This document shows, one piece after another, positions 1 through 12,855 of a stretch of DNA of 12,855 bases. The position numbers and the translations under genes are program-made. Position 1 is the stretch's first letter. Each line of letters begins with the position of its first letter. The DNA is from Planctomycetota bacterium (GTDB lineage: Bacteria; Planctomycetota; UBA11346): contig JBBQSO010000121.1 in NCBI GenBank assembly GCA_038213805.1, positions 1 through 12,855 of the forward strand, given 5' to 3'. The notes beneath the pieces are model-generated. The model did not search any database. It worked only from the letters and a program-made list of their open reading frames with translations, and was not told the origin of the DNA.

Positions 1-115
1 GATTCGAAGGGCTTCCGCAATGCAGTTTCTGCCTGGAAAGCAGTGGGCGGCACAGTCCCGTAGCTATTTCTGACTGCACTGCGACTGCTGAGGATTAGCG
101 TCAATCCGAGCTACT

Positions 116-658
116 ATGGCAGCACGGATTGACGCTCACCACCAAAGCATTGAGCTAGTATGGACGGGGCCAGCCACCTCGTTCATCCCGATGCGGAGGA
201 CGGAGCAGGTTGTCCAACGGGTCATAGATGCGGCGAAGGATCGCCTACTGTTGACCAGCTACGCCTTCGTCAATCCCGAGGGCCTTGCTTCCAGTTTACG
301 AGCTGCAGCAGCACGAGGCGTAGCCATTACGGCCATCCTCGAACCACCAAAGTCCCGCGGTGGTTCGATTGATCACGATCCTGCGGCCAACTTCAGGACA
401 ATCGTACCGTCAGCCAAGGTCCTTGAGTGGACCACAGCATCAAAAACCAGGAGCGACCTTCCACCCGGCGGTTGCCTGCACGCAAAGATCGCCCTTTCCG
501 ATGCAAGCGCGGTATTCATCTCTAGCGCCAACTTCACTGGCAAGGCGATGGATAAGAATATGGAAATGGGCGTGCTCATTGTAGGCGGATCCCACCCCCA
601 CGCATTGAGGAAGCATTTCGAAGCTCTTATTGAACGCGGTTTCTTCGATTGCACATGA
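116..658 (+). CDS. drmC: Phospholipase D-family nuclease, DISARM DrmC-like; probably 5'-truncated or disrupted
   Basis: Single HKD motif LHAKIALSD followed by ISSANFT and NMEMGVLI; N-terminal ELVWTGP...RRTEQV and LLLTSY segments as in DrmC-like proteins. No clear SD before ATG116, and all three + frames have a stop between 61 and 98. Confidence 0.75.
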   Translation: MAARIDAHHQSIELVWTGPATSFIPMRRTEQVVQRVIDAAKDRLLLTSYAFVNPEGLASSLRAAAARGVAITAILEPPKSRGGSIDHDPAANFRTIVPSAKVLEWTTASKTRSDLPPGGCLHAKIALSDASAVFISSANFTGKAMDKNMEMGVLIVGGSHPHALRKHFEALIERGFFDCT

Positions 659-927
659 ATCTCAGCCTCATTAAGCAAGAGTATTGACGCCTTGATAGTG
701 TGCGTTCAACCATGAGTACTAGAGGACGGAAATCCGCATCGATAAAATCGCGCGCTAAGGAGGTCCCATGGTCTGCGTCCCACCACGCGTACACTTGACT
801 GGAGGCAAGGTATGGACAGGCAATAAAGTCCACCTCCACAACGCCCACCATTTTCCAATCGACGGTCGAACCGAAGTACAACCTCCCACTTCTGTGGCAG
901 GAGATCCGCCGCGCCTCCCCCAAAACC

Positions 928-963
928 AAAAAAAACCTGCCACGACTCACATCGCAGCAGGCT
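928..963 (-). terminator. Intrinsic terminator, duplicate of the tRNA-Gln terminator
   Basis: Minus strand GCCTGCTGCGA-TGTGAG-TCGTGGCAGG followed by T8. Confidence 0.75.
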
Positions 964-968
964 CTCAT

Positions 969-991
969 TGGTTGAGGTACAGGGATTCGAA
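969..991 (-). pseudogene. tRNA-Gln 3' fragment from the T-loop to CCA (att core)
   Basis: Minus strand TTCGAATCCCTGTACCTCAACCA, 22/23 identical to the tRNA 3' end at 3310-3332. Identity stops at the T-loop. Confidence 0.92.
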
Positions 992-1148
992 GGCGAGCCA
1001 GAACGGCAGGCAACATCGGTTTATATCAGCCTATATGGAGTGAATTCACGCACTTAGATGGCCATACTGGCGCCACTCGGATTTCGACGCCAGAGGCTAT
1101 TTTACCCCCCTTATGGGCCGGCCGTGGGACCAGGATGTGACGATCAGG

Positions 1149-1188
1149 ACAGGATGCCGCCGGGTGGGCGGCATCCTGTTTATCTTTT
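1149..1188 (+). terminator. Perfect 13-bp hairpin with T-rich tail, terminator-like
   Basis: ACAGGATGCCGCC (1149-1161), loop GGGTG, GGCGGCATCCTGT (1167-1179), then TTATCTTTT. Confidence 0.65.
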
Positions 1189-1587
1189 ACCGCGAGCGGT
1201 CAGGTATCCATTCGCCATCCGACTGCCGCGCGGGCCGCCGCGGGAGCGGTCCATCAGGGCCGCAGGGCCGTCAGCCTCGAAGCGGGCCCTCCATGCATAC
1301 AAGGTGTGCTTCGAGACGCCCACTAGCGGAGCGAAGTCGCCGGCCGGCAGGCCGCTCTTCATCCAGGCGTCCAAGACCAGCGGCCGCTACGCCGGCGTCA
1401 GCTGCGCTTGGCTGGCTGCCACCTCCGGCGCCACCATCTGGCGGCCGCGCCGTGGGGCGCCCGGCCGTCGGCCGGTCAGCGCGGGCGCGCTCACCACTTC
1501 TTCCGGCCCGTGGGTGGCCACCTCCTCAATCGGCTCGATGGGCGGGACTGGGGTGATCGGGGTGTTCTGAAGGTGGCTCTTGGCCAC
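1180..1587 (-). pseudogene. Transposase N-terminal helix-turn-helix fragment (IS481/TnsB-like DDE type), with internal stop and truncation
   Basis: ORFs 1387-1587 and 1180-1374 are one frame split by TAG at 1387-1389: LTPA*RPLVLDAWMKSGLPAGDFAPLVGVSKHTLYAWRARFEADGPAALMDRSRG. VS..TLY.W..RF...G.AAL.DRSR is the typical HTH pattern of such transposases. Similarity appears to end near 1216; no DDE domain. Confidence 0.8.
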
Positions 1588-1735
1588 TCCCTCTGGCGGC
1601 TACGCCGCCGGTGGGAGCAGGGGAGTTCCTCTAGCTGACTTCAGGAATGGAACGTGATGCAATCTGGCGAGGAGGACCCGACATCCACCGACCGAGAGCG
1701 TAGCACTCCTGTGGCCCTGACCGTGCATGGCTCAT

Positions 1736-1764
1736 CTGACATTTATCCTTTCCAAAAGGATAAT
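1736..1764 (+). promoter_or_regulatory. Putative sigma70 promoter with overlapping palindromic operator-like site upstream of the ATPase
   Basis: CTGACA (1736-1741), 17-bp spacer, GATAAT (1759-1764). Perfect inverted repeat TTATCCTTT-cca-AAAGGATAA (1743-1763). Confidence 0.6.
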
Positions 1765-1785
1765 ATATGAGTAAACCCACCTCTC

Positions 1786-3117
1786 ATGAGTGATATTAGA
1801 GCGATCCTCCGCCAGCGCATCACCGATGCCCTGACGATGCCCATCCCCGCGCTGACCAAGCGTGATGTCCAGTTGCCCAAGGTGTCAGGGAAGGCGCACG
1901 CCGTCATCGGCATGCGCCGCAGCGGCAAGTCGACGTTCCTGTGGCAGTGCCTTGCCGAGCGCTTGGCCGCTGGTTCGCCACGCGAGGCCCTGCTGTACCT
2001 CAATCTGGAGGATGAGCGGCTGATCGGTATGACCGCCATCGACTTGGGCGGAGTGATCGAAGAATGGTTCCGCCAGATCCCCGGCATCCGCGACCGGACG
2101 CGCGCGACGTTGTTTCTCGACGAGGTCCAACTCATCCCCGGCTGGGAGACCGTTGCCCGCCGGATCATCGACCAGGAGCAGATCGACCTTTTCCTGTCGG
2201 GCTCGTCTGCTCATCTGCTGAGTTCCGAGATCGCCACCAGCATGCGCGGTCGGGCGCTGCCGACGACGATCTACCCGTTCAGTTTCCGCGAGACGCTGCG
2301 CCATGCCGGCCTGGAACCGGCCAAGTCCTGGAATCGCTTGCCCAAGGCCGGGCGCTCCGACCTCGATGCACGCCTGCGTCAGTACCTGCTGGCCGGAGGG
2401 TTCCCTGAGGTCCAGGGCGTACCCGATCGCGACCGCGCGGCGTTATTGCGCAGCTACGTCGATGTCGCTGTCCTGCGCGATGTCATCGAGCGGCACGCCG
2501 TCTCGCACCCGGTCGCGCTGCGCTGGCTGCAACGCCATCTGCTGTCCACGGCCGGCGGCCTGTTCAGTGTGCAGAAGTGCTGGGACACGATGCGCTCGCA
2601 GGGCTTGGCGGTGGGCAAGGACAGCGTCCATGCGTGGCTCGCCCATCTTGAGGACTGCTTCCTCATTCGCACCCTGAGCGTCGCCACGACCAGCGAACGG
2701 CGGCGCATGGTCAACCCGCGCAAGTCGTACCCCATCGACCCCGGCCTGATTCAGGTCTGGTCGCGGTCACCCGAGGCTCAGACCGGCCACGCCCTGGAGA
2801 CCGCCGTGCTCATCGAACTGCTGCGCCGTGGGCAGGACGTGGATTATGTGAAGACCGACGAAAGTCAGGAGATCGACTTCCTGGCGCGGGATCACACCGG
2901 CAAGGAGACGCTGATCCAGGTCGCCAGCGACACCACGGATGCGGAAACGCTAGCTCGCGAAGCCAGGTCGCTGCTGGCGGAGTCGCTGCGCAGGCCGAAT
3001 GCAGAAGCATTGCTCATCACCATGGATGCCCTGCCGCCCAAGGTGCCGGCAGGGGTGAAGTGGGTGGCAGCGGGGGAGTGGCTGCTTGCGATTGGTGACG
3101 AGGAACGCGCACGCTAA
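1786..3117 (+). CDS. AAA+ ATPase (AAA_14) with DUF4143 and PD-(D/E)XK-like C-terminus, COG1373-like, 443 aa
   Basis: Walker A GMRRSGKST, YLNLEDER, Walker B LFLDEVQ, LSGSSA, MRGR, GGFPE, KSYPIDPGL, LETAV, EIDFL...LIQV. Confidence 0.92.
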   Translation: MSDIRAILRQRITDALTMPIPALTKRDVQLPKVSGKAHAVIGMRRSGKSTFLWQCLAERLAAGSPREALLYLNLEDERLIGMTAIDLGGVIEEWFRQIPGIRDRTRATLFLDEVQLIPGWETVARRIIDQEQIDLFLSGSSAHLLSSEIATSMRGRALPTTIYPFSFRETLRHAGLEPAKSWNRLPKAGRSDLDARLRQYLLAGGFPEVQGVPDRDRAALLRSYVDVAVLRDVIERHAVSHPVALRWLQRHLLSTAGGLFSVQKCWDTMRSQGLAVGKDSVHAWLAHLEDCFLIRTLSVATTSERRRMVNPRKSYPIDPGLIQVWSRSPEAQTGHALETAVLIELLRRGQDVDYVKTDESQEIDFLARDHTGKETLIQVASDTTDAETLAREARSLLAESLRRPNAEALLITMDALPPKVPAGVKWVAAGEWLLAIGDEERAR

Positions 3118-3152
3118 ATAACGTTCGTCAATAAAAACTGTGTGCGGTAAGA

Positions 3153-3332
3153 TATGGACAGGCAATAAAGTCCACCTCCACAACGCCCACCATTTTCCAA
3201 TCACCGGTCGAACCGAAGCACAACCTCCCACTTCTCTGGCGGGAGATCCGCCGCGCCTTCCCCAAAACCAAAAAAACCTGCCACGACTCACATCGCAGCA
3301 GGCTCTCATTGGTTGGGGTACAGGGATTCGAA
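3153..3332. repeat. Direct repeat copy 2 (tRNA-proximal att-like site)
   Basis: Matches 811-991 and overlaps the last 23 nt of the intact tRNA. Confidence 0.97.
3270..3304 (-). terminator. Intrinsic terminator of tRNA-Gln
   Basis: GC-rich hairpin GCCTGCTGCGA/TCGTGGCAGGT running into T7, a few nt after the CCA end. Confidence 0.85.
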
Positions 3333-3383
3333 CCCCGACAGGCAGAGTCAGAGTCTGCAGTCCTACCGTTAGACGATACCCCA
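3310..3383 (-). tRNA. tRNA-Gln, anticodon CTG, 74 nt, CCA encoded
   Basis: Minus strand folds as a cloverleaf: TGGGGTA TC GTCTAACGGTAGGAC T GCAGA-CTCTGAC-TCTGC CTGT CGGGG-TTCGAAT-CCCTG TACCCCA A CCA. U1-A72 pair typical of bacterial tRNA-Gln. Confidence 0.97.
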
Positions 3384-3398
3384 ATGCCGGAGGGACGG

Positions 3399-3425
3399 AT
3401 TCTGGGGCGAAGGCCCTGCGGTCAA
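3399..3425 (-). promoter_or_regulatory. Possible tRNA promoter
   Basis: TTGACC (3425-3420) and CAGAAT (3404-3399), followed by GC-rich sequence. The spacer is only 15 bp. Confidence 0.4.
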
Positions 3426-3450
3426 GGGGCGGCCAGGGCTGGCTCGCTAC

Positions 3451-4410
3451 CTAATGCGGGGGCGGGGGCTTGGCGGGGGCGGCCCGGTCCTGGGCGACGA
3501 TGCCGGCGCGGTCCTGCCAGACCCGGGCGTCGGCGGAGTCGCCGCGGCGCTGGGCGAGTTCGGCAAGGTGCCGGGCGATGCCGGCGGTGGGGTCGCACTC
3601 GTAGGCGCGCAGGTAGGCGCGGCGCGCGTCTTCGAGGCGGCCGGCGGTGGTGGCGAGGTCGCCCAGCAGCTCATAGGCCCAGCCGGAGTTGGGTTCCTGC
3701 GCCAGGTAGCGGCCGGACAGGCGCTCGGCGAGGTCGCCGTCGCGCGCCTGGGCGGCGAGCTCGATGCGGGTGCGCAGGCTGGCGAGGTGGTCGGGGTCGC
3801 GGCGCAGGGCCTCGTCGATGAAGGCGGTGCCGCGCTGGCGGTCGCCGCGCATCAGGGTGGTGATGCCCTGGCCGTAGGGCCCCCACGGCGCCTGGGGCGC
3901 GAGGTGGTCGAGGTCGGCGAAGACGCTCTCGGCGGCGGCCAGGCGCTTGAGGCGCATGTAGGTTTGCGCCAGCAGCACGCGCGGCTCGATCCAGTAGCCG
4001 CTCGCGGCGATGGCCCGGTTGCACCACGGCACGGCCTCTTCGAAGTGCGACTGCTGGTAGAGCAGCCGCGCCTGGAGCAGGAACGCCACCGGGTGGGTGC
4101 CGCCCGCGGCAAGCACCGCCTTCAGCTTCGCGCGCGCCTGGTCGTAGAGGTCGTCCTCCATCAGCTGCTGGATCTCGTCCATCTGCCGCGCCTCGGCGAG
4201 GGTCGCGGCGGAGGGCTTGTCGTCGTTGCGGAACACACTGCGGCTGAAGGCCGACGAGATGCTGCCGGAGTTGGTCGAGCCGCGATCGATGGGCGTGGCG
4301 GGCGTCGGGGCGACCGCCGGCTTGGCCGCGGTGGCGGGGGCGAGCGCGTCGCGACCGCAGGCGGCCAGCGCCAAGCAGGCGGCGGCGAAAGCAGCGGCGC
4401 GCACGTTCAC
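3451..4410 (-). CDS. TPR-repeat lipoprotein (~319 aa)
   Basis: GTG at 4410 overlaps the upstream TGA (GTGA). Signal peptide with lipobox LAAC. Several TPR-like units, e.g. WAYELLGDLATTAGRLEDARRAYLRAYECDP. Confidence 0.85.
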   Translation of the reverse strand: MNVRAAAFAAACLALAACGRDALAPATAAKPAVAPTPATPIDRGSTNSGSISSAFSRSVFRNDDKPSAATLAEARQMDEIQQLMEDDLYDQARAKLKAVLAAGGTHPVAFLLQARLLYQQSHFEEAVPWCNRAIAASGYWIEPRVLLAQTYMRLKRLAAAESVFADLDHLAPQAPWGPYGQGITTLMRGDRQRGTAFIDEALRRDPDHLASLRTRIELAAQARDGDLAERLSGRYLAQEPNSGWAYELLGDLATTAGRLEDARRAYLRAYECDPTAGIARHLAELAQRRGDSADARVWQDRAGIVAQDRAAPAKPPPPH

Positions 4411-5660
4411 AGCGCCGACCCCAGCGCGGCCGCCATGGCGGCGGCCTTGGCGTGGACCTCGTCCCATTCGGCATCGGCGGCGGAGTCGGCGACGATGCCA
4501 CCGCCTGCATCCAGACGCACCGCATCGCCGTCGATGACCAGGGTGCGGATCGCCACCGCCAGCGCGGCGTCGCCACCGCCCAGCCAGCCGAAGGCGCCGC
4601 AGTAGGGCCCGCGCGGGCCGGCCTCGAGCTCGGCGATGATCTGCATGGCGCGCAGCTTCGGCGCTCCGGTGATCGAGCCAGCGGGAAATGCCGCAGCTAT
4701 CGCATCGGCAGCGCCCCGTCCCGGCGCCAGGCGCGCGGCGATGCGCGCCACCAGATGATGGACATAGGGCAGGTCAAGCACGCGCGCCGCGGTGGCCACG
4801 CGCACGCTGCCCGGCAGCGCGACGCGGCCGAGGTCGTTGCGCACCAGGTCGACGATCATCGCCAGTTCTGCGCGGTCCTTGTCCGCGCCGAGCAGCGCGG
4901 CGCGCGTCGCTGTCTCGGCGCCGGCCACGCGTCGGCGCGTGCCTTTGATCGGCGCGCTGGCCAGCGCGCCGCCGCGCGCGGCCAGGAAGCACTCCGGGCT
5001 GTGGCTGACCACGCTGCGGCCCGCGGCGCCGCGGAAGAACGCGGCGAAGGGCGCCGGACTGGCCGCGGCCAGGGCCAGGAACAGCGCCAGGTCGCGGTGC
5101 GCGCCCGCCTGCAGCGTGGCGCGGAAGGGCACGGTGAGGTTGGCCTGGTAGATGTCGCCGGCGGCGATGTAGGTGCGGATGCGCGCGACGCGCTCACGGT
5201 GCCCGGCCGTTTCCCACGCGGGCAGCAGTGGCGTGGCGAGGCGCGGCAGCGCGAGGGGCGTGGGTGCGCGCGCCAGGCCGGCGCGCAGGTGGGCGAAGCC
5301 GGCCTCGTCCGCCGCGTGCAGCGTGCAGCGTCCCTGGGGGTCCCAGGCGGCGAAGGCCGGCGCCGGCCACGCCCAGCCGGGCACGGCGGGGAATTCGTAG
5401 TCGAGCTGGACGAACGCGCCGCCGGGGAACCCGGCGGCCCAGGCCTCGTCCGGCGCGTCCTCTGTGCTCGCGACGCCGGCGCCCGCGCCCACCCACCGCG
5501 CCAGGGCATGGTGGTCGGCGATCGCCTGCGGGGCGCTGCCCCAGGTCGCATAGCTCCAGCCCAGCCCTCCTGCGTGCAGCACGGCAAGGTGCGGCTGGTC
5601 GGCGAGGCGCAACAGCGCGTCGCTGAGCGGCAGCGCCGGGCCGGGCTGCGTATGCTTCAC
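4407..5660 (-). CDS. pabB: Aminodeoxychorismate synthase component I (chorismate-binding MST family)
   Basis: GDIYQANL, SPECF, PIKGTR (Lys typical of PabB; TrpE has PIAGT), AELAMIVDLVRNDLGRV, FPAGSITGAPK, RGPYCG, AIRT, AGGGIVADS. GTG start overlaps the nadC stop. Confidence 0.85.
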   Translation of the reverse strand: MKHTQPGPALPLSDALLRLADQPHLAVLHAGGLGWSYATWGSAPQAIADHHALARWVGAGAGVASTEDAPDEAWAAGFPGGAFVQLDYEFPAVPGWAWPAPAFAAWDPQGRCTLHAADEAGFAHLRAGLARAPTPLALPRLATPLLPAWETAGHRERVARIRTYIAAGDIYQANLTVPFRATLQAGAHRDLALFLALAAASPAPFAAFFRGAAGRSVVSHSPECFLAARGGALASAPIKGTRRRVAGAETATRAALLGADKDRAELAMIVDLVRNDLGRVALPGSVRVATAARVLDLPYVHHLVARIAARLAPGRGAADAIAAAFPAGSITGAPKLRAMQIIAELEAGPRGPYCGAFGWLGGGDAALAVAIRTLVIDGDAVRLDAGGGIVADSAADAEWDEVHAKAAAMAAALGSAL

Positions 5661-10949: not shown

Positions 10950-12855
10950 GGGACGGGCGGCACGGCAGGGGCAGGCGCAGGCGCAGGCGCGGCTGGCGGC
11001 GGTGTCGGCGCGGTCTCGATCGGCGACTCGGGTGACGCGGGCACCGCAATCGCGGGCGCGCGCACCGTCGCCGGCGCGGGCCCGGGCTTGGCCGACGGCG
11101 CCGGCAGCGGCAGCGCTCCGGTCCCGGCACCGCCCGGCCAATCGTATGGCAGCGGCAGCGGCGTCTTTCCTGCCGCCAGCGCGGCGTTGGCCTCGGCCGC
11201 CTCGCGGCGCCGGCGGTAGAGCTCGGCGGTCTGCTGCCGCCGCTTGAGCTGCACGCGCGCGCTGTCGACACCGGCCTCGCCGGCTTCGATGGGTTCATCG
11301 CGCAGCAGGGCCTCGGCGCGGCGCTCGCTGTCGGCCGCCTTAGAATAGTCGCCGAACACGAACTGGGCGCAGGCGACCGTATCCAGCACGCTGTGCTGCG
11401 GGTGCTCCTTGACGGTCTGCTCGAGCGCGGGCAGCAGCTGACGGACCAGCGCCAGGTCGGCGGGCGTCGGCGCGGTGGTGCCGGCGACCGCGACGTAGGC
11501 GAAGGCGTTCTCGACACTCAGGTCGAGGTCGCCCTCGCCCGTGCCCTGCGCCAGAAACGGCACCATGCGGTGGCGATAGCGATACATCATGCGGTCGTCG
11601 TTCTGCGCGTCGCCATCCGCGTCCTTGGGCCCGGCGTAGAAGCCGAGCTTGAGGGTGCACTCGACAAACAGCTGCCGCTCATGGTCATTGGCCTGGCTGA
11701 CCCAGCGCTTGAGCCGCGGCAGGCTGCCCTGGTCGGCCTCGGCGAGCGCCGCGGCCAGCTCTTGGTCGTGGTCGACCCAGCTGGCAAGGGCGCTGGCCGC
11801 CTGCTGGGCCGTGAGATGACGCGCCCGATCCGGGTTCTGCCAGTATTGGTTCGCCACAAGCATGGCGAAGGTGATCAGGATGAGCGCGAGCAGGCTATTA
11901 CGCATACGGCGGACGCGGTCGTGGTGCTGGGTGGCGAGGGCGGGGTCGACGTTGACACGATCGAGGAAGGCGACGCGTTCCGCGATGCTGTAGTGCCGCC
12001 AGCTGGGTTCATTCTCTGGCTGACCGGAAAGGCGCGCAACCGATTTGAGGGCATCGCGCATGGTGGTGACGTCGCCGGCCAGCTCGGCCCCGGCGAGATC
12101 GGCCTGGCGTTCGCAGGCCCGACTGAGCACGCCGAAGACCAGCCGCCACAGCACCGCCATCACCAGCACCATCGCCAGCCCTTCGCTGATCCCGGCGACC
12201 GGCAGGGCGCGGCCCAGGCCCGGCACCGCGGCGAACAGTCCGGCCAGCTCGGGCTGGATGACCTTGACCATCTCCGGGCGCATGACCATCGACAGCAGCA
12301 GCGCGGCGTTGGCGAACAGGAAGTAGATCCACAGGTGGCCGTGGCGGGCGTGGCCCAGCTCGTGGCCGAGCACCGCCAGCACCTCGCGCTCGGGCAGGTC
12401 GCGTAGCAGGTCGTCGGTGAACAGCACGTAGCGCAGGCGCGGCACCATGCCGATCACCGCCGCGTTGTAGACCCGGCCGCCGGGCACCGGCCAGCGCAGC
12501 AGCCCGGCGATCGGCACGCGCATGGTCGCGCAGGCGCGGCGCAGCAGCCCGGCCGGCTCGCCCTCGGGCATCGGCTTGGCCCCCCACACCCGCACCAGCA
12601 CCACCGGCAGCGCGATGAGCAGGGCGAGCAGCGTGAGCTGGCCCATGTAGAGCCCGGCGATCTGCCCCCAGAAACCCGCGAACCAGCCGTCGAAGCGCCA
12701 GGTGATGGCGATCCACGCGCCCAGGTCGAACACCGGCAGGATCAGCGCCATCGGCAGCAGGCCAAAGTTGAACTGGTGGGCGACCCGCCCCCAGCGCGTC
12801 CACGGGTGCCCGCTCGCCGCGCGGATGGCCGGGGTCATGCTCCACCAGTGCGCGC
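10946..12855 (-). CDS. M48 (Ste24/HtpX-like) membrane zinc metallopeptidase with TPR-like and Pro/Ala-rich C-terminus; probably 5'-partial
   Basis: YNAAVIG, LFTDDLL, VLGHELGH (HExxH), ERQADLAG, HYSIAERV; several hydrophobic helices. The frame stays open from ATG 12838 to the window edge. Confidence 0.9.
   Translation of the reverse strand, partial: AHWWSMTPAIRAASGHPWTRWGRVAHQFNFGLLPMALILPVFDLGAWIAITWRFDGWFAGFWGQIAGLYMGQLTLLALLIALPVVLVRVWGAKPMPEGEPAGLLRRACATMRVPIAGLLRWPVPGGRVYNAAVIGMVPRLRYVLFTDDLLRDLPEREVLAVLGHELGHARHGHLWIYFLFANAALLLSMVMRPEMVKVIQPELAGLFAAVPGLGRALPVAGISEGLAMVLVMAVLWRLVFGVLSRACERQADLAGAELAGDVTTMRDALKSVARLSGQPENEPSWRHYSIAERVAFLDRVNVDPALATQHHDRVRRMRNSLLALILITFAMLVANQYWQNPDRARHLTAQQAASALASWVDHDQELAAALAEADQGSLPRLKRWVSQANDHERQLFVECTLKLGFYAGPKDADGDAQNDDRMMYRYRHRMVPFLAQGTGEGDLDLSVENAFAYVAVAGTTAPTPADLALVRQLLPALEQTVKEHPQHSVLDTVACAQFVFGDYSKAADSERRAEALLRDEPIEAGEAGVDSARVQLKRRQQTAELYRRRREAAEANAALAAGKTPLPLPYDWPGGAGTGALPLPAPSAKPGPAPATVRAPAIAVPASPESPIETAPTPPPAAPAPAPAPAVPPVP

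Follow-up and report, generated by a model that had tools for sequence, protein, structure and literature searches.

An integrase-less islet at tRNA-Gln(CTG) of a Planctomycetota bacterium is probably the decayed remnant of a site-specific island

Elements that integrate at specific sites can decay and accrete in tandem at their attachment (att) sites, and cis-mobilizable elements (CIMEs) have been defined in this context in the accessible parts of PMC5704250, PMC3146451 and PMC10201445. With respect to the enzymes involved, the accessible part of PMC4383910 states that serine integrases are not known to target tRNA genes. Among possible cargo, PDC-S01 is reported as the fourth most common defence candidate, most PDCs still requiring experimental validation (accessible part of PMC12988326). 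Here we describe a small islet with a PDC-S01-type ATPase gene at a tRNA-Gln(CTG) gene of a Planctomycetota bacterium. The window, that is the whole stretch of DNA analyzed, has 12,855 nt and is the entire contig C121 (JBBQSO010000121.1, assembly GCA_038213805.1) of a genome, G000, with 5.5 Mb in 180 contigs and a completeness of 90%. For comparison we used 48 genomes of the family including G000 (47 relatives; genomes are numbered G, contigs C and loci L).

Within the window only the segment 992-3309 proved to be a site-specific insert; it is integrase-less, CIME-like and equipped with candidate defence cargo. The direct observations are an intact tRNA, a displaced 23-nt fragment of it, a junction arm with homologues in relatives, no recombinase, and insertion sequence (IS) debris at the inner joints. 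With a probability of about 0.62, we consider that 992-3309 goes back to a site-specific island which had integrated at the T-loop of tRNA-Gln(CTG) and then decayed, losing its integrase while keeping both att ends and the ATPase. Most likely the islet belongs to an already known sort of genomic scar, a site-specific island minus its integrase. The target and the parts of the unit, from right to left, are as follows.

3310-3383, minus strand: intact tRNA-Gln(CTG), the integration target
3146-3309, minus strand: repeat copy 2 beyond the CCA end, with a terminator hairpin (3272-3307) and about 120 nt
1786-3117, plus strand: intact gene for a 443-aa ATPase with AAA_14 and DUF4143 domains, a candidate defence gene of the PDC-S01 type
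1736-1764, plus strand: promoter-like site that includes a palindrome (TTATCCTTT..AAAAGGATAA); it is conserved in front of closely related ATPase genes
1213-1677, minus strand: 5' remnant of an IS481-like transposase gene with the left end, cut at 1213 (HTH_29/HTH_28; NF033577 below cut-off)
992-1200, minus strand: element-derived junction arm, a putative P arm of attP (anchored alignment, motif, terminator)
969-991, minus strand: displaced 3' fragment of tRNA-Gln, 23 nt with one substitution; the breakpoint is the T-loop palindrome TTCGAA, the att core
804-968, minus strand: repeat copy 1 beyond the CCA end, with a terminator hairpin (931-966) and about 120 nt of unexplained origin

The tRNA-Gln gene and the adjoining TPR gene are syntenic in several relatives, and host genes resume to the right of the tRNA; their GC content is 0.73, compared with 0.51 to 0.57 in the non-coding parts. 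The direct repeat (804-991 and 3146-3332, spacing 2342) shows 94.7% identity (E 2e-79), and the aligned copies differ at 10 of 188 columns with a longest identical run of 50 nt. Each copy consists of 23 nt of the tRNA 3' end starting at the T-loop TTCGAA, a terminator-like hairpin with a T-run, and about 120 further nt. The original prediction, made from this DNA alone, had described a layout of cargo gene, arm and tRNA end that occurs twice, with an identity of about 158 bp beyond the CCA end. The long identity is real, but it continues for 165 and 164 nt past the CCA, and the tRNA part is a 23-nt fragment with one substitution. The repeat itself is equally real, but the layout is less regular than described: IS66-like stumps (698-792) lie between the drmC gene on the left and copy 1, and the arm 992-1200, a terminator and the IS481-like remnant 1213-1677 lie between copy 1 and the ATPase gene. 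Further copies, which had also been envisaged, did not turn up in G000, neither by sequence search nor by a search for the tRNA-Gln 3' pattern. In an Rfam scan the tRNA was the sole passing RNA family, with no known family for the repeat; the fold z-score of the repeat (-4.3) includes the terminator hairpin.

The evidence for a site-specific insertion comes from the relatives, in 36 of which the DNA after tRNA-Gln(CTG) could be read, many of these loci ending within a few kb. The tRNA-Gln 3' pattern was matched in 31 of the 48 family genomes and a second, displaced match was present in three (G000, G008 and G061). All three displaced fragments break between GCC and TTCGAA and have GATATAA 29 nt upstream. 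A fourth, degenerate fragment was found by reading in G041. A gapped junction pattern matched four stretches in 185,579 species genomes; two of them are family members at tRNA-Gln fragments and the other two (L086, L087) belong to other phyla. GATATAA lies 29 nt ahead of the core in the arm of the window, which also includes CCCAC-N6-CCCATAA (1111-1128) and a terminator hairpin (1147-1181). In an anchored alignment, window 992-1206 and the G008 arm are identical at 117 of 231 columns (z 6.6, reached by none of 500 shuffles); BLAST of the junction arm over the 47 family genomes missed the G008 arm, and it is the anchored test alone that reveals the likeness. Over the first 45 nt of the arm the z-scores are 4.4 for window-G061, 4.0 for G008-G041, 3.6 for G061-G041 and 2.0 for G008-G061. 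The common breakpoint and GATATAA in G008 and G061, together with the arm alignments, indicate that 992-1200 is DNA of an element family that targets this tRNA. The shared breakpoint and the homologous arm thus confirm the displaced fragment as a true att scar, as had been predicted.

Recombinases of two types were found at the same tRNA-Gln(CTG) within the family. In G043 an intact tyrosine integrase converges on the tRNA. Broken relatives of this enzyme are located there in G051, G048 and G022, with a weak trace in G044, and the broken genes in the former three indicate that decay is common at this site. Intact large serine recombinases are present in G008 (L025:980-2677), G045 (L077:217-1794) and G012 (L030:536-2056), and partial ones in G005 and G006 (L023, L035); their frames run through the terminator into the antisense tRNA-Gln. 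G008 additionally contains, at L129 (C96:6-400), the 3' end of a G043-type tyrosine integrase (68% identical) converging on a tmRNA-like 3' end, which suggests target switching away from tRNA-Gln.

Two relatives carry small integrase-less islets with the junction signature. The G041 islet (L081:519-3850, contig C77) is contiguous over 3.3 kb and contains a HigB pair and a PDC-S01 gene that differs from the one in the window. It combines this signature with a tRNA-side arm similar to that of G043 (80% over 66 nt, E 2e-8). Directly after the tRNA-side arm lies a 46-nt copy of the 3' tail of the ATPase gene, and the CCA end of the G041 tRNA-Gln reads unlike that of its relatives. The G061 islet (L065:12865-17244, contig C2) has 4.4 kb and contains ParE/Phd and a second small gene pair without a Pfam match. 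An additional arm-like copy is located at 11521-11573, and genes beyond it are duplicated in tandem over 1.2 kb. Other cargo at this tRNA includes HNH and Fic genes in G007 and an SNF2 helicase in G047, with ordinary genes in many others. As predicted, the site is a hotspot of integration across the family, and its cargo varies and frequently consists of defence or toxin-antitoxin genes. In the window the ATPase gene converges on the tRNA where relatives have the 3' end of an integrase, in support of the original prediction. Intact integrases, broken integrases and integrase-less islets at one tRNA fit a CIME-like pattern of decay and stacking.

A motif, CCCAC-N6-CCCATAA, chosen after the sequences had been seen, occurs at a distance of 120-137 nt on one side of the core in the window and in G008 and at 67-69 nt on the opposite side in G043, G050, G048, G041 and G022. 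Arm-type sites on both sides of the core are typical of a lambda-type attP. A second match of the motif in G043 was considered as the far end of the G043 element and rejected as a chance match without arm similarity. A junction search with two mismatches in five genomes yielded no convincing far end, and viral searches for the arm pattern and for the G043 integrase were blank. We favour a tyrosine-type integrase on account of G041, in which the junction signature and a tRNA-side arm resembling that of G043 belong to a single contiguous islet. The islet could instead be the remnant of an element with a large serine recombinase, of the type that converges on and reads through the tRNA in G008, G045 and G012. 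The intact enzymes in these three relatives and the partial ones in two more are in line with such an origin, G008 combines an enzyme of this type with the arm that most resembles that of the window, and the Dehalococcoides ssrA islands offer a parallel, as a serine recombinase integrates there at the T-loop of tmRNA and neighbouring islands lack an integrase (accessible part of PMC3146451). We regard a serine element as very improbable here. The repeat was tried as the 3' stump of a serine recombinase gene, but the best frame reached 0.6 bits as compared with 8.8 bits for the best of 300 random stretches. The conserved arm of about 200 nt with the motif on both sides of the core better fits a tyrosine attP, and G041 pairs the junction signature with a tyrosine-type arm.

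The longest part of the repeat has no counterpart. The 120 nt did not match JGI metagenome contigs (exact 25-mers) or viral contigs (exact 22-mers), records nearest to the window's genome possibly being excluded in both cases. They are also absent from the 47 family genomes, with merely two short chance matches, and from 400 sampled genomes of the phylum, with three matches of 27-35 nt in unrelated contexts. In none of 28 anchored comparisons did they follow the tRNA (best z 2.7). The first 45 nt of the repeat resemble hairpins of the nearest relatives G010 (z 5.9) and G003 (z 4.0), beside whose tRNA no recombinase was found, and also hairpins that precede tyrosine integrases in G051 (z 4.5) and G022 (z 3.7). 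Since hairpins of both kinds are matched, these 45 nt do not separate a host from an element origin. Long blocks of identity at att sites are known.

To compare the assembly with independent data we used four of eight listed sequencing runs, all as contigs and of low depth; two of these, X1 and X2, come from one study, which is perhaps the source of the assembly. Pieces of X1 and X2 agree fully with the window over 140-726, 811-1360, 1604-3182 and 3347-4600, and one public assembly provides a bridge over 811-1360 and 2522-3152 that is likewise free of differences. No listed piece bridges the joint of drmC with copy 1 or that of copy 2 with the tRNA, small pieces around the copies not being covered. 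A misassembly of the window is unlikely. In its specific form, two strains' alleles of the tRNA flank joined in series, it would agree with the two unbridged joints and with the common study of the best two runs, but it has to be considered extremely improbable in view of the matching pieces and of the copies themselves, which differ at 10 places and whose longest identical stretch of 50 nt is shorter than the 140-nt overlap at the assembly fork.

Record 10 of run X2 joins 2522-3152 directly to 811-1360. It carries the letters of copy 1 at 861-991, which places the crossover in 811-860, 130-180 nt away from the core, and excludes an integrase-type excision. According to depth arithmetic this record is the sole cover of 771-924 and 3081-3234 in X2. 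It may stem from looping by homologous recombination, from amplification in tandem or from a chimera in the assembly; a chimera of the graph is as likely as a circle or tandem. A joint with the crossover in the core was not present in the four runs (contigs only, low depth). The unit has depths of 9.8-10.9 and the flanks of 5.3-6.7, values that do not represent copy numbers, and X1 has a piece of depth 3.0 inside the unit.

These data bear on a homologous re-integration of the unit. Here the 165 nt would be a resident species-level flank, and a circle cut imprecisely from an old attR would have re-entered by RecA-type recombination, or the alleles of two strains would have been spliced. The circle would have consisted of arm, fragment, flank and ATPase gene, closed at the IS joint, so that a single old scar and an integrase-free duplication suffice and the unit can loop out or amplify via the repeat. 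Such a course of events is unlikely. In its favour, the hairpin of the repeat is closest to those of G010 and G003, the repeat lacks the arm motif of the G043 type, the homology to the G008 arm stops at about 1200, close to the IS truncation at 1213, and the sole joined form crosses outside the core with copy-1 letters throughout. On the other hand, the same type of hairpin precedes the tyrosine integrases of G051 and G022, the anchored comparisons never show the 120 nt behind the tRNA, and the X2 joint can be a chimera.

Several points weigh against a decayed site-specific island as well. The 120 orphan nt leave the origin of most of the repeat unexplained. The repeat is without the tRNA-side motif of the G043 type, and the two ends are therefore not a canonical attL/attR pair of this type. 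The sole displaced fragment found in G008 would belong to the intact serine recombinase that this genome has beside the tRNA, on another contig, and the arm would then be serine-type. The likeness of the window arm to the G041 arm is by itself not significant (z 1.4 over the first 45 nt), and CCCAC-N6-CCCATAA is not enriched genome-wide, with 14 matches as compared with 14 control matches in the 48 genomes, four of the 14 lying beside this core. Finally, G000 is 90% complete and the DNA to the left of the contig is missing, so that a cognate integrase could be located there.

A cognate recombinase was not found in the available part of G000. PF00589 gave seven matches, none of them on C121, PF07508 gave none, and tblastn (E<=1) detected no relative of the G043 tyrosine integrase. 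The assembly contains no adjoining recombinase-bearing element, and the contig breaks at base 1. The unit 992-3309 comprises the IS481-like remnant and the ATPase gene and no recombinase or conjugation genes. The entire window is free of recombinases, which agrees with the predicted absence of an integrase; this absence is partly due to the fact that the assembly stops at an IS.

The ATPase is well defined (Pfam 1e-30 and 1e-14, PADLOC PDC-S01 1.8e-91, Walker A at residue 42 and Walker B at 109). Its close relatives occupy five distinct loci with 75-91% protein identity (L049 and L136 being one locus). Near these five there is no tRNA, repeat or arm, and the DNA homology covers at most 1741-3086; the ATPase is not tied to the repeat. 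The palindrome 1741-1764, shared with L136-L139, is likely an autoregulatory operator and would mark the left boundary of the gene itself.

These results affect the central proposal of the original prediction, namely that defence modules without an integrase, all ending in the same att module, form a cassette-like array whose recombinase acts in trans or is encoded further to the left. The islets of G061 and G041 with the same junction signature, the intact recombinases of the family for tRNA-Gln(CTG) and the unseen DNA left of the contig are compatible with such an array. It is nevertheless improbable: the repeat exists in two copies only, the cargo genes do not travel with it, the inner joints are IS debris, no core-crossover joint was seen, and the left unit has no far end and contains drmC, normally part of a multi-gene system. 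Because no cognate integrase was found in G000 and the ATPase relatives are without the repeat, a modular cassette array is not supported. A related possibility, which we consider doubtful, is that the small integrase-less islets (window 2.3 kb, G041 3.3 kb, G061 4.4 kb) are live satellite defence modules that borrow passing integrases of the G043 type, the long repeat of the window also allowing PDC-S01 to loop out or amplify as a dosage switch.

The left part of the window contains the following features.

140-658, plus strand: 3' two-thirds of drmC (phospholipase D-like protein of DISARM), the first 83 codons missing in the assembly
698-792, plus strand: IS66-like left-end stumps, 698-771 with promoter, ribosome binding site and ATG, and 771-792 as a second end-like stretch recognized by eye only
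1-139, plus strand: probable IS66-like right end (ends ..GACGCTCAC), called from terminal likeness; a collapsed repeat where the contig breaks

The predicted DrmC-like gene was verified, with 190.6 bits for NF038319 (cut-off 133, profile positions 72-236) and 1e-60 for the PADLOC DrmC model, but the open reading frame is truncated by the IS66-like end at 139/140, at the end of the contig. The intact protein (P0001) has 258 aa and is 100% identical over the common part. Positions 1-140 are identical to an end of C108, and the terminal letters are the same as those of an IS66 right end on C124. In record 1 of run X1 the join is at 140; the 936 letters before it differ from those of the window, and drmC continues leftwards there. 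The segment 698-770 matches C18, C90, C106 and C77 at 77-92%, and C90 and C77 encode IS66 transposases. The N-terminal part of DrmC was not found in G000, and none of the 47 family genomes has a DrmC relative at E<=1e-25. drmC normally belongs to the multi-gene DISARM system and not to a one-gene cassette. The partners drmA, drmB and drmD, which had been expected further left, were not found over cut-off in the 90% complete G000 assembly: NF038324 and NF038325 had no match and NF038317 none above its threshold, in a search that covered neither the methylase nor the long DrmA model. The suggested successive integration of two sibling elements is possible, as the hairpin of the repeat resembles those before the G051 and G022 integrases, but the drmC unit is cut by an IS, is without DISARM partners in the assembly and shows no far end. 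As a second unit stacked at the site, with its DISARM remnant, it is plausible but unproven.

Further copies of the debris and of tRNA-associated repeats were noted elsewhere. The contig end of C108 that equals the IS66-like right end of the window belongs to a region (C108:9991-16035) in which a tyrosine integrase and genes of phage-like character lie behind tRNA-Gly. At C133:1090-1135 a 46-bp palindrome consists of two IS66-like ends and is possibly the minimal footprint of the element that cuts drmC. The truncation of the IS481-like remnant is marked by high-depth contigs with other letters before 1213; contigs of this element reach a depth of about 100 in X1 and X2. Its left end (1540-1677) is also found on C30 of G000 (C30:2-139), where it lies directly 3' of tRNA-Pro. 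Behind tRNA-Gln, the genomes G013, G061, G062, G058 and G059 (L032, L065, L069, L070, L072) carry the tRNA 3' end in inverted copy and a repeat similar to repetitive extragenic palindromes, sometimes in tandem. Dense tRNA arrays occur in G000 (C70:4968-7308, 13 genes) and in G005 (L023:6831-12506, more than 20 genes, about 7 kb from its tRNA-Gln(CTG)).

If the islet is a decayed site-specific island, its history may be pictured as follows. The island would have integrated at the T-loop of tRNA-Gln(CTG) by means of an integrase that was probably of the tyrosine and not of the serine type (about 70:20). The 165 nt past the CCA would have been present on the incoming circle and would have matched what already followed the tRNA. 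This resident sequence may have been the arm of an older related element that now holds drmC, or a captured resident flank, alternatives which the data do not separate. The integrase would subsequently have been lost by an IS-associated deletion near 1200-1213. The locus would then be a defence hotspot of a passive kind, subject to accretion and decay, and not an actively shuffled cassette array.

In the likely case the locus is an example of a tRNA hotspot that gathers and erodes defence cargo in an uncultured, Planctomycetota-affiliated family, and island finders that require an integrase would miss such islets. The analysis also maps an attP-like signature and names candidate enzymes that compete for one tRNA, the tyrosine integrase of G043 and the serine recombinases of G008, G045 and G012. 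If the islets were satellite modules, single-gene defence islets mobilized in trans or amplified via long att repeats would be a testable route to rapid defence turnover.

In the literature we found no description of such a locus type for Planctomycetota in the accessible parts of the sources, nothing on the 182-bp att identity of HP1, and no paper on DUF4143 with AAA_14. The ATPase corresponds to PDC-S01 as a single-gene ATPase fused to a PD-(D/E)XK-type domain (PADLOC, HMM 1.8e-91; accessible part of PMC12988326), with no specific difference. The drmC product passes the NCBIfam cut-off as in DISARM class I, but the gene is interrupted by an IS in this assembly, and G000 yielded no match above the cut-off for drmA, drmB or drmD. 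In contrast to an integron-like cassette array, the repeat is by direct reading a tRNA tail plus terminator and has two copies only. Islands described by Islander (accessible part of PMC4383910) share the intact tRNA with a displaced 3' fragment, the T-loop (J) sublocation and a size above 2 kb. The tDNA and its correctly oriented fragment, 2342 bp apart, lie within the Islander spacing of 2-200 kb, but there is no tyrosine integrase gene within the island, so that Islander would reject the islet. The Dehalococcoides ssrA islands (accessible part of PMC3146451) are similar in their T-loop integration, a conserved motif just upstream of the displaced fragments, the tandem arrangement and members without integration modules. 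They use a tmRNA target, the serine recombinase DsiB and repeats of about 20 bp, whereas the window has tRNA-Gln, probably a tyrosine enzyme and a 188-bp repeat; unlike DsiB-like serine islands, the window has no large serine recombinase converging on the att site. The CIMEs (accessible parts of PMC5704250 and PMC10201445) differ in that the window shows no adjacent functional integrative and conjugative or integrative and mobilizable element, that its identity runs 165 nt past the tRNA end, that the att function is putative, and that the host belongs to a Planctomycetota-affiliated family and not to the streptococci. Like the CIMEs, the islet is flanked by att ends, contains neither recombinase nor conjugation genes, has kept its cargo and is stacked at a site of related elements.

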